Shown: positions 44,401-45,861 of the stretch, one piece after another
Position numbering within the stretch: the stretch's first letter is position 1
Layout: every line of letters starts with the position of its first letter
Source of the DNA: Aplysia californica
Taxonomy: Eukaryota
Length of the DNA: 64,000 nucleotides
Direction of reading: 5' to 3'
Assembly: GCF_000002075.1 (NCBI RefSeq)
Contig: NW_004797306.1
Coordinates: 289,048 to 353,047 of the forward strand
Notes under the pieces: model-generated
The model's database searches: none
What the model was told of the DNA's origin: nothing
What the model saw: the letters and a program-made list of their open reading frames with translations, nothing else
Position numbers and translations under genes: made by a program

Positions 44401-45861
44401 CAGTATGACTCAAGTTCTGCCTCATTCCTCATTTCAATCAGTATGATCTGGGCAAGTTATTTAAGAATAGGAGCGGGGGGTGAGGGGTGGTAGAGTGCCC
44501 TGTTTAGCTCTGTGAATGTAGCTTTTGACTCTGGTGCAGATGACCTAGGTTCAAATCCCTAACTGGACACTCTTGAACTCAGATTGTTTGGGGAGTTTTC
44601 ATGGCAGTCAGCCCACTTGGCTTGGTTGGGATGTTTAGTCCTGTCTCTTAAATGTTTAGTATTCTAACTAACAATTTCTTGATAATTTTTCACAGTGAAT
44701 GACAATATGCCCTTCTGTTTAATTTACAGGTATGAAGAGATTGTGTGTGGCTTCATGAAGCTTAACCTGGACTCAGATGATCTACATGCCTTCTTGCAAG
44801 GTTTTATCCTTCCGCTTTTTGCAAAGCCAAGTACAAAATCAGGAGCTATTTCAAAAGAAGATTCAAATAAAGCTCAAAGTGGGCAGCAGAAAAACTTCTT
44901 GTCAAAGGAAAACCCTTTAGAAACATTTGCTCCCAAACCCAAACATGAGCAGGCTGTTCCCAGCAGTATCTTTCATGACAGTCCCAAGAAAGCTCCCACA
45001 TCTAAGCAGAACTGTGACTCTGTGAGGGAGGTGAGCATTGAGGAACCCAGTGTTGAAAATAAGTACTGTGCCCTATCTACACATAAAAGATCAACTGAAG
45101 AGCAAAGAGAAGGGTTGGTTGAAAAATACAAGATGCGGGAAAAGGAATCACACAAAAAGAGTTTTGTCGACTCAGTTTATCAGAAGCAAAAAGTCGTCGT
45201 CTTAGAAGAGTTTGCTAAAACTCCTGTGATAGATTTGAAAAGCAAAAGCGATCAAAAAGTACTGGAGGCTGGCATGACTAATGCCCTGTCAGAAGCTGTG
45301 AGTCACCCTTACTCGGACATTTTAGAGTCTCCGGTCATTGTTGAGGGTCCTGACGGTAAAGTGTGGAGAAGCTCAAACAGCCTTTCTCACAGGGACTCCA
45401 AGCAGAGCAGCACTTGTGGTTCCAGCACCAAAAGCCCTATCAGTTTTTACCCTGACTCAAAACTTAGTACAAGCTCGGGGGAACCTAGCGTTGATAAAAG
45501 TCCTCTCCCTTTTCGAGTGGATTCAAAGCGTAGATGCGCAAGAGATCCCTACACAAGCAGCCCTAACCCTATTCACACAGGATCTAAACAAATAAAACTC
45601 CACTCTGAGACGGGAGACAGTTCTCCCTCAGACTCCAGGAAGATTTCTGTTGGTATCAGGAGTGACAAGTGCCCAACTCTGACGGCGTTGAAACGAGAGA
45701 AGAAATCAGCGGAGACCCCTAGCTTGTACAACACCGAGGCTTCCACAGACCAGTCTGGTGGCAGTCAGAGCAGTGCCAGTGACAGGCGTAGCACGTCGGC
45801 TGACCCCAGTGCCTACTCCGATGGCCTAAGCACAGACTCCGAAAGTAGGAAACCTAGATAA
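12584..45861 (+). CDS. msh5: MutS protein homolog 5 (meiotic MutS-gamma subunit), 25 coding exons, ~1184 aa
   Basis: Exons 12584-12745, 13409-13532, 14438-14518, 15670-15747, 16217-16338, 18007-18116, 20584-20705, 22113-22158, 24117-24255, 24931-24993, 25709-25780, 26452-26508, 27164-27236, 28973-29082, 30320-30400, 31053-31098, 32260-32301, 33123-33219, 34392-34481, 36563-36689, 37675-37899, 38841-38984, 40980-41117, 43574-43647, 44730-45861. All introns are GT-AG and phase-compatible; total 3555 nt. MSH5-typical [26 protein letters not shown], Walker [24 protein letters not shown]. The start codon is the least certain part. Confidence 0.93.
13409..13532 (+). CDS. msh5: msh5 exon
   Basis: [18 protein letters not shown]...[19 protein letters not shown] ends. 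Confidence 0.88.
14438..14518 (+). CDS. msh5: msh5 exon
   Basis: [18 protein letters not shown]; phase 1/1. Confidence 0.85.
15670..15747 (+). CDS. msh5: msh5 exon
   Basis: ...[17 protein letters not shown] donor. Confidence 0.8.
16217..16338 (+). CDS. msh5: msh5 exon
   Basis: [10 protein letters not shown]...[12 protein letters not shown]. Confidence 0.9.
17603..17945 (-). mobile_element. tRNA/CORE SINE with L2-like tail and (ATT)n end (copy 53601-53941)
   Basis: Two aligned ~340-bp copies; B-box GGTTCAAATCC. Confidence 0.75.
18007..18116 (+). CDS. msh5: msh5 exon
   Basis: [36 protein letters not shown]. Confidence 0.93.
20362..20426. repeat. (GT)n microsatellite (others near 8-28, 12340-12419, 43652-43797; (GA)n near 11260-11318, 32704-32777, 57712-57745)
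   Basis: Read directly. Confidence 0.9.
20584..20705 (+). CDS. msh5: msh5 exon
   Basis: [35 protein letters not shown]. Confidence 0.93.
22113..22158 (+). CDS. msh5: msh5 exon
   Basis: [16 protein letters not shown]. Confidence 0.9.
22562..22969 (-). mobile_element. I/Nimb-like LINE 3' fragment with (AAACT)n tail
   Basis: Copy of 368-752 preceded by AGTTAGTTTAGTTTTAG. Confidence 0.6.
23640..24075. mobile_element. ~430-bp non-autonomous DNA transposon family (copies 41140-41575 inverted, 50620-51056, 62393-62830)
   Basis: Imperfect TIRs GCGGTGGAATCAGGC / GCCTGATTTCACCAC; shared interior TGAGAGTCCGTGGAAACTGAAA. Confidence 0.75.
24117..24255 (+). CDS. msh5: msh5 exon
   Basis: [30 protein letters not shown]...KHVKFIP. 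Confidence 0.93.
24931..24993 (+). CDS. msh5: msh5 exon
   Basis: [21 protein letters not shown]. Confidence 0.9.
25709..25780 (+). CDS. msh5: msh5 exon
   Basis: [24 protein letters not shown]. Confidence 0.9.
26452..26508 (+). CDS. msh5: msh5 exon
   Basis: [19 protein letters not shown]. Confidence 0.88.
27164..27236 (+). CDS. msh5: msh5 exon
   Basis: [24 protein letters not shown]. Confidence 0.92.
28973..29082 (+). CDS. msh5: msh5 exon
   Basis: [22 protein letters not shown]...SYIPE. Confidence 0.92.
29224..29503. mobile_element. TTAA-type MITE (inverted partial copy 37923-38075)
   Basis: CTCTTTATCTCCG...CGGAGATAATGAG followed by TTAA. Confidence 0.55.
30320..30400 (+). CDS. msh5: msh5 exon
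   Basis: [10 protein letters not shown]...IEGLQFK. Confidence 0.9.
31053..31098 (+). CDS. msh5: msh5 exon
   Basis: [15 protein letters not shown]. Confidence 0.88.
32260..32301 (+). CDS. msh5: msh5 exon
   Basis: [14 protein letters not shown]. Confidence 0.88.
33123..33219 (+). CDS. msh5: msh5 exon
   Basis: [16 protein letters not shown]...TAELDC. Confidence 0.9.
34392..34481 (+). CDS. msh5: msh5 exon
   Basis: [30 protein letters not shown]. Confidence 0.9.
34543..34795 (-). mobile_element. RTE-clade LINE 3' fragment
   Basis: [21 protein letters not shown]...[15 protein letters not shown] followed by (GAT)n. Confidence 0.8.
35693..36423. mobile_element. pogo/Tigger-like non-autonomous element
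   Basis: Subterminal CACCTGTC..A.ACGGCCAC repeats at both ends; right end GGTTCGACTG-TA. Confidence 0.6.
36563..36689 (+). CDS. msh5: msh5 exon with Walker A
   Basis: [15 protein letters not shown]...[15 protein letters not shown]. Confidence 0.96.
36705..36798. repeat. (CTT)n(CCT)n microsatellite
   Basis: Read directly; it produces the spurious poly-L and poly-E ORFs. Confidence 0.9.
37675..37899 (+). CDS. msh5: msh5 exon with Walker B
   Basis: [19 protein letters not shown]...STFMQDL...[12 protein letters not shown]. Confidence 0.96.
38380..38830. repeat. Degenerate C-rich minisatellite
   Basis: Recurrent CCCC.TCC...TCTGCTAGTTTTG.TGAAACCTTCCT units. Confidence 0.7.
38841..38984 (+). CDS. 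msh5: msh5 exon
   Basis: [32 protein letters not shown]. Confidence 0.94.
39243..40531 (+). mobile_element. Internally deleted hAT-type element with CGGBP1-like transposase N-terminus
   Basis: Imperfect TIRs CAGTCTGTCCTCAGAGAAA / TTTCTCCTGGGAACAGTG, subterminal GCAACTTTTG repeats, peptide [27 protein letters not shown] at 39856-39936. Confidence 0.6.
40720..40938 (+). mobile_element. tRNA-derived SINE
   Basis: A-box TAGCCTAGTGG, GTGTCCTTTGGAAAGGCACTT core; homologous to 1639-1850. Confidence 0.7.
40980..41117 (+). CDS. msh5: msh5 exon (HTH dimerisation region)
   Basis: [46 protein letters not shown]. Confidence 0.94.
42011..42189. mobile_element. Small MITE with AAATTATG internal repeats
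   Basis: CTGTCCC...TTTTATGC / GCATAAAA...GGGACAG. Confidence 0.5.
42884..43085 (+). mobile_element. Degenerate tRNA-derived SINE (copy ~20055-20230)
   Basis: Shared TGGGTTGGCCCTGACAA.CAGGGTTGGA block in both copies. Confidence 0.5.
43574..43647 (+). CDS. msh5: msh5 exon
   Basis: [25 protein letters not shown]; phase 0/2. Confidence 0.8.
43873..43987. repeat. 40-bp minisatellite, ~3 copies
   Basis: GTCCCTCTCTCAAAATGAGTAACTTGTTGGGTAGGATGGC at 43873, 43913 and 43953. Confidence 0.9.
44330..44446. repeat. 38-bp minisatellite, 3 copies
   Basis: TGACTSAAGTTSTGCCTCATTCCTCATTTCAATCAGTA at 44330, 44368 and 44406. Confidence 0.9.
44730..45861 (+). CDS. msh5: msh5 terminal exon: conserved [22 protein letters not shown] plus long S/K/E/P-rich tail
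   Basis: Acceptor TTTACAG at 44729; 376 open codons to TAA; the first ~28 aa match the MSH5 C-terminal helix. Confidence 0.88.

Follow-up and report, generated by a model that had tools for sequence, protein, structure and literature searches.

A long disordered tail on MSH5 in Aplysia californica and other euthyneuran snails, likely gained independently of the Caenorhabditis tail

A 64,000-nucleotide stretch of the Aplysia californica genome (RefSeq assembly GCF_000002075.1, contig NW_004797306.1, positions 289,048 to 353,047 of the forward strand; hereafter the window, to whose numbering all coordinates refer) carries a gene for the MutS homologue MSH5 in which the reading frame runs on for several hundred codons past the conserved end of the protein. 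This raises the questions of whether the extension belongs to the protein, how widely it occurs, and what it may do. An initial annotation, made from the sequence alone, had proposed a phospho-regulated, SUMO-reading crossover module outside nematodes, being either convergent with the tail of Caenorhabditis MSH-5 or an unrecognised protostome feature. The analysis below indicates that the tail is encoded and spliced to the core in Aplysia and is shared by euthyneuran snails, with a likely single gain independent of the worm tail and a likely regulatory role as a flexible scaffold attached to the MutS-gamma clamp, a combined reading that is considered reasonably probable.

The tail in Aplysia and its distribution among snails

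The MSH5 coding span (12584..45861, plus strand) comprises 25 exon blocks and encodes a protein of 1184 aa (P0002; protein mapping 12584-45858). Its last coding exon (44730..45861, plus strand) contains the terminal helices of the MutS core, the entire tail and the stop codon, and the translation of this exon is 100% identical to the end of the RefSeq A. californica MSH5 (1184 aa). The conserved part closes with QGFILP (aa 831-836), whose last codon ends at 44814, and a further 348 residues (aa 837-1184; 44815..45858, plus strand) are read in the same exon, close to the ~345 aa noted initially. The frame is open from 44731 to the stop at 45859-45861, for which the chance at local base composition is ~4e-9, and GC content falls from 46% in the tail to 31% past the stop. 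The likely 3' untranslated region (45862..46800, plus strand; GC 31%) has an AATAAA near 46394, an ATTAAA near 46794, and contigs over 45850-46736 and 45850-46564.

The splice sites at 43647/44730 are GT-AG. Four runs were considered, of which X4 and X6 are contig sets of one study and X21 and X22 are polyA raw-read sets. X4 and X6 each hold one intron-free contig joining core exons to 44728-45788, and the listed pieces that end at 41114 and resume at 44728 are separated by 75 letters, as predicted from splicing of the penultimate coding exon (43574..43647, plus strand; 74 nt, AG/GT bounded), which accounts exactly for them in both contigs. Near the stop, 62 bases (45788-45850) are uncovered between listed contigs, with further contigs starting at 45850. 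X21 and X22 have hardly any coverage, whether of the tail or of core-exon bins, and are uninformative on the tail.

The tail is predicted to be disordered, as had been suggested. An AlphaFold2 model built on a 70-sequence alignment was confident over the core; almost the whole of residues 845-1184 had a predicted local distance difference test (pLDDT) score below 50 and lacked secondary structure, and the tail neither docks nor folds onto the core in this model. FoldIndex was likewise lower in the tail (-0.09) than in the core (+0.22). A Pfam scan of the tail gave no domain, a search of the ESM Atlas with aa 930-1150 gave no usable match, and a genome search found the tail as a single copy in Aplysia. 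A protein search with the tail exon, at the longer lengths, returned only Aplysia itself, and a search with an alignment of eight tails, at near lengths, returned no match.

The distribution of the tail was surveyed in the best 120 of 7737 matches, to which all counts of tail length refer unless a profile search is named. Tails of 277-515 aa past the end helix were present in all eight heterobranch models reaching the helix (Aplysia, Plakobranchus, Bradybaena, Candidula, Physella, Lymnaea, Biomphalaria and Bulinus). A further 108 matches end no more than 12 aa past the helix (five of them truncated models, one the first half of an Elysia gene), and four extend 18-123 aa past it. Among the 21 named molluscs outside the heterobranchs, 20 stop no more than 12 aa past the helix and the remaining one, Batillaria (P0011), stops at 38 aa, with a hydrophobic end that looks like a gene-model fusion. 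Short ends were found in annelid, nemertean, brachiopod and horseshoe-crab matches (Capitella, Owenia, Lingula, Lineus, Tubulanus and Tachypleus) as well as in bivalves, cephalopods and non-heterobranch gastropods. Two more tails came from a profile search, one of 209 aa in the second half of the Elysia chlorotica gene and one of 309 aa in a Logan protein. Each of the 10 euthyneuran MSH5 ends retrieved thus has a tail (209-515 aa), and the four species whose placement was checked belong to Euthyneura. The proposal that a long MSH5 tail exists outside nematodes is thereby upheld.

In a quick tree of 36 cores, picked from the 120 sequences for taxon spread, the heterobranchs formed one clade (Shimodaira-Hasegawa-like approximate likelihood ratio test, SH-aLRT, 100) adjoining short-tailed caenogastropods, the sample including few ecdysozoans and having nudibranchs and lower heterobranchs outside it. 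The simple reading, and a likely one from these comparisons, is a single gain of the tail on the euthyneuran snail stem by extension of the last exon. The snail tail also likely arose separately from that of Caenorhabditis, since the worm tail is stated to be unique to that genus (Haversat et al. 2022, PMC9173770). Of the two origins initially offered, the convergent one fits the absence of the tail in the sampled lineages between snails and worms; the other, an unrecognised protostome feature, conflicts with the short annelid, nemertean, brachiopod, bivalve, cephalopod and non-heterobranch gastropod ends. No account of a gastropod MSH5 tail appeared among the literature matches listed, a set with most subscription papers outside its scope. 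The Aplysia protein itself is already annotated in RefSeq.

Several further observations concern the mode of change at the ends of MSH5. Identity between Aplysia and each of seven relatives was 21-30% in the tail and 57-65% in the core. A long stem branch (0.44 changes per column) leads to the heterobranch MSH5 cores, indicating fast core change where the tail was gained. The Lymnaea tail (P0006) contains tandem repeats of ~22 aa, and the Bulinus tail (P0009) has two copies of motif B, one of the motifs described below, as though a portion of this tail had duplicated. One B. glabrata model (1643 aa) extends past the tail, clusters with cytochrome P450 10 and looks like a gene-model fusion. At the opposite end of the protein, heterodont bivalve MSH5s (Mya, Mercenaria, Dreissena and Mactra; P0030, P0031, P0034 and P0065) have low-hydrophobicity N-terminal extensions of 216-233 aa that share a block beginning T-P-[LM]-[VI]-L-A-T-A, and Haliotis has an N-terminal extension of 146-148 aa. 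Disordered ends that retain a T-P site seem to have been gained by MSH5 on more than one occasion.

Conserved motifs and SUMO-interacting-like cores

Conservation within the tail was assessed by an unbiased scan in which 9-residue windows of the Aplysia sequence were compared with seven relatives, with 30 shuffled tails as controls. Two windows top all 30 shuffles (maximum 5.6), one at a psi-K-x-E site (Z=7.9) and one at EEFAKTPV (Z=6.4). The latter falls within block A (45172..45228, plus strand), which consists of an aromatic residue, a spacer and E-x-F-x-[KR]-T-P-[LV], and whose threonine, T972, is a candidate proline-directed phosphosite or part of a docking motif. Block A occurs in 6 of the 10 tails (Aplysia, two sacoglossans, two land snails and the Logan protein) at tail position 131-146, and it is the best 9-mer pair with all five non-hygrophilan tails at nearly the same position. 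The psi-K-x-E site forms motif C, [TSA]-A-[LIV]-K-[KR]-E (45682..45705, plus strand; K1129), a SUMO-acceptor consensus which overlaps a basic patch, lies in a predicted disordered region, and occurs in 5 of the 10 tails (Aplysia and all four Hygrophila). One T-P site and the psi-K-x-E site among those initially singled out are thus conserved in distant relatives.

Motif B, D-[LM]-[RK]-x-[LF]-F following a mostly basic run, occurs in 7 of the 10 tails, from pond and land snails, and is missing from Aplysia and the sacoglossans; the Aplysia stretch aligned to it (45496..45534, plus strand; aligned pattern K-x-D-[LM]-R-x-[LF]-F) does not match. Where the motifs occur together they follow one another as A, B, C without exception, and 111 non-heterobranch MSH5 proteins held no match to any of these patterns. 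Motif B also fits a cyclin R-x-L-F docking site or a bipartite nuclear localisation signal (NLS), and it may be likened to the PCNA-interacting peptide (PIP) box that MSH3 and MSH6 carry in a disordered end. It resembles the non-canonical PIP box pattern x-x-x-h-x-x-a-a (PMC5766153), which has no match in the Aplysia tail; among the nine orthologous tails, seven carry D-[LM]-[RK]-x-[LF]-F, with both aromatics only in Candidula.

The motifs listed in the initial annotation are all present in the Aplysia tail: eight S/T-P sites, SPKK, three cores resembling SUMO-interacting motifs (SIMs), LKRE and KREKK. Expected counts were taken from composition-matched shuffles of the tail. By this measure the S/T-P sites are not enriched (8 vs 6.24 expected, P=0.27), nor is the full cyclin-dependent kinase (CDK) consensus S/T-P-x-K/R (1 vs 1.0 expected), and psi-K-x-E occurs once against 0.40 expected. 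The SPKK site (44980..44991, plus strand) is unconserved (Z=0.33) and the other nine tails have 2-6 S/T-P sites, such that the idea of a multisite CDK tail is not supported. A reading of S-[ST]-P sites as polo-box targets was also rejected, these not being enriched in Aplysia (2 vs 1.2).

The SIM-like cores gave a different result within Aplysia. With a loose parallel-SIM pattern that was not fitted to the observed cores, there are three matches against 0.60 expected (P=0.015), and the probability of three inside 55 aa is 0.001; strict SIM a/b/r patterns have no match in the Aplysia tail. A looser pattern fitted to the observed cores (P ~1e-4) was dropped as circular. The clustering of SIM-like cores therefore exceeds chance in Aplysia, whereas the count of CDK sites does not. 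Among the nine orthologous tails, six have no core and three have one (0.3-1.0 expected), and the cluster appears in none. Core 1 (KVVVLEE; 45190..45210, plus strand) lies on variable positions of block A and core 3 (SPVIVE; 45328..45345, plus strand) is likewise found only in Aplysia, both with Z=0.9 in the window scan, while in core 2 (TPVIDL; 45220..45237, plus strand) the T-P is conserved and the leucine that completes the SIM is not. The proposed SUMO-reading cluster is thus not conserved among these nine tails. Absence of the motifs from orthologous tails, which had been named as grounds for abandoning the initial proposal, applies to the SIMs and SPKK; it does not apply to LKRE or to the T-P of TPVIDL, which are kept in distant relatives. 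At most, the Aplysia cluster would represent a recent local addition.

The MSH5 locus and related genes

The assignment of the gene to MSH5 is consistent with its domains, PF05192 (MutS III) and PF00488 (MutS V) both being over the cut-off with no MutS_I match listed, and with its top matches bearing a paralogue name, which are MSH5; MSH2, MSH3 and MSH6 lie at other Aplysia loci. A candidate MSH4 was found at a locus on contig C69, by elimination only, on the basis that it has no preferential match to solved MSH2/3/6. The top zf-RING_5 exon in the Aplysia genome resembles RNF212, and a MutL_C profile search of the genome, bearing on MLH3, led to one exon. The helix pair that closes the MSH5 core (its last 45 aa; 44730-44814 in the window) can be recognised from sponges to fish, a breadth that may conflict with the label 'mammalian-specific' for a 38-aa domain of mouse MSH5 (10.64898/2026.06.16.731784).

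In an older Aplysia MSH5 model (P0122), whose tail is identical, 56 aa resembling a retained intron near 27000-27160 are inserted at aa 392. Around an MSH5 exon, the stretch at ~40600-42500 has very high read and contig depth and many loose ends, attributed to intronic repeated elements. Head-to-head with MSH5 (start 12584) lies an uninterrupted open reading frame of 341 aa with a bZIP end (8739-9764, minus strand), resembling c-Jun/AP-1.

Possible functions of the tail

From sequence comparison, the tail is likely a fast-evolving disordered scaffold with few functional motifs, and is likely a target of SUMOylation and phosphorylation, not a reader of SUMO. Attached to the MutS-gamma clamp where meiotic recombination takes place, this flexible regulatory scaffold would present T972 of block A as a single proline-directed (CDK-type) phosphosite or a docking site, and K1129 of motif C as a SUMO acceptor by which the clamp may be retained near pro-crossover factors that bind SUMO. 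Motif B, as present in pond and land snails, may bind PCNA or a cyclin, or may act as a nuclear import signal. The setting for such roles is described in other systems: yeast Msh4-Msh5 is SUMOylated, SUMO sites favour disordered regions and psi-K-x-E is the SUMO consensus (PMC7924959), as found for motif C in predicted disorder; disordered regions recur at crossover sites (PMC11077092, PMC13192651). The PIP likeness of motif B is relevant because PCNA is reported to join the MutS-gamma/MutL-gamma ensemble via PIP-like motifs (10.1101/2020.02.12.946293).

A number of points weigh against this scaffold reading. No motif is universal among the 10 tails, the best 9-mer pairs have only modest pairwise family-wise P values (0.03-0.20), the motif patterns were derived from the same sequences in which they were counted, and the two added tails (Elysia and Logan) were retrieved with a profile already containing the motifs. 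Between two Biomphalaria species the tail differs at 14/291 residues compared with 14/827 in the core (Fisher p=0.007), and one of the tail changes flanks motif C. In yeast meiosis the consensus fits only ~14% of SUMO sites (PMC7924959), such that consensus and actual use are loosely tied. The independence of the snail tail from the worm tail follows from its absence in the sampled lineages between them, with no direct comparison to nematode sequence. Contigs join the core to 44728-45788 across 43647/44730, but these spliced contigs come from one study and their status as RNA is an automatic guess.

An alternative is that the tail is a tolerated stop-codon read-through in which only housekeeping content is selected, such as a nuclear import signal, with no crossover role. 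The very low identity of the tails, their range of lengths (209-515 aa) and the internal repeats of Lymnaea and Bulinus all speak for this, as does the repeated gain by MSH5 of long disordered ends, such as those at the N-terminus in heterodont bivalves. Motif C overlaps a basic patch, and motif B of Physella and Biomphalaria is spaced like a bipartite NLS (KR, 12 residues, basic cluster; general NLS consensus). This explanation does not readily account for a frame that is open for more than 200 codons in all 10 members of the lineage, for block A, which has no wealth of basic residues and whose E, F, T-P and position are preserved in three deep lineages, or for the glutamate of psi-K-x-E, which is kept in 5/5 copies and would be dispensable for an NLS, and it is regarded as having a low though appreciable chance of being correct. 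Less likely still is the module first proposed for Aplysia, in which three clustered SIMs would be activated by phosphorylation of S/T-P sites. The number and clustering of the cores argue for it, as does the direct position of two cores after an S/T-P, with the T-P ahead of core 2 conserved, and short motifs in disordered regions can turn over quickly. The ortholog set holds no close relative of Aplysia, so that conservation of the SIMs is judged across distant relatives only. Against the module are the near-chance occurrence of cores in the nine orthologous tails, without a single cluster, the lack of strict SIM matches, the variable positions of block A that core 1 occupies, and the choice of this stretch from a large scan, for which the clustering P value has to be discounted.

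It would also be possible to regard the tail as an annotation or assembly artefact, or as sharing an ancient protostome ancestry with the worm tail. The 62-base gap between contigs near the stop and the few ecdysozoans sampled leave some room for this, but the tail is in the same place in independent genomes of nine named species, the spliced contigs include it, and short ends occur in the annelid, brachiopod, nemertean and horseshoe-crab genera named above and in 20/21 other named molluscs, in addition to the described uniqueness of the worm tail (PMC9173770). This explanation is already largely refuted and is considered very improbable. A more ambitious form of the scaffold reading is that Euthyneura re-invented the worm solution to crossover designation, with an essential scaffold whose motif set was swapped between lineages: a conserved phospho-T-P block and SUMO acceptor, joined in pond and land snails by a built-in tether to PCNA or a cyclin and in sea hares by a multi-SIM SUMO reader. 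The scaffold may, on this view, replace a lost trans-acting factor such as PRR19. This is considered doubtful. PRR19 is reported in molluscs (PMC7303132), and a search for its family PF15455 gave no match in the Aplysia genome nor in any control, and so is uninformative on a loss of PRR19.

The scaffold reading draws its closest parallel from the Caenorhabditis MSH-5 tail, which is likewise long, disordered, poorly conserved, placed after the MutS core and restricted to one lineage, and which is described as a scaffold needed for crossovers and for accumulation of crossover factors, its 13 CDK sites being individually dispensable (PMC9173770). Phosphorylation by CDK2 with COSA-1/CNTD1 is a further property of the worm type. 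The two differ in that worm tails are proline-rich and have 8-23 CDK motifs, whereas snail tails have 2-8 S/T-P sites, in none significantly above chance, and instead keep a T-P block, psi-K-x-E and motif B; the snail tails thus share the long disordered extension with the worm but neither its many CDK motifs nor, probably, its descent. In mouse, a 38-aa C-terminal domain of MSH5 with predicted phosphorylation and SUMO sites is reported to matter for the step from crossover licensing to designation (Carr et al., 10.64898/2026.06.16.731784), but it is short and at the end of the core, compared with the ~300-residue disordered extension in snails. Modification of MutS-gamma, partly in a terminal region, also regulates crossover function in yeast, through the Msh4 N-terminal degron and SUMOylation, although this involves the other subunit and the other end, and the strongest yeast SUMO sites are in ATPase domains (PMC7924959). 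The PIP-like motifs of MLH1 and MLH3 (10.1101/2020.02.12.946293), and of EXO1, resemble motif B, but this motif is absent from Aplysia and the two sacoglossans and has leucine rather than an aromatic residue at position 7 in most copies. Compared with multi-SIM modules, the Aplysia tail has, by the loose pattern, clustered hydrophobic cores with an acidic or phosphorylatable flank, but these are not conserved in orthologues.

The description of the worm tail as unique to Caenorhabditis (PMC9173770) leaves open whether such a tail is a peculiarity of worms or a recurring design of MutS-gamma as a scaffold. A second independent origin, in a large snail clade that includes the laboratory species Lymnaea, Biomphalaria and Aplysia, would make this question testable. 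While the worm tail offers almost no conserved sequence, the snail tails point to specific residues, namely T972, K1129 and those of motif B, through which such a scaffold may act.

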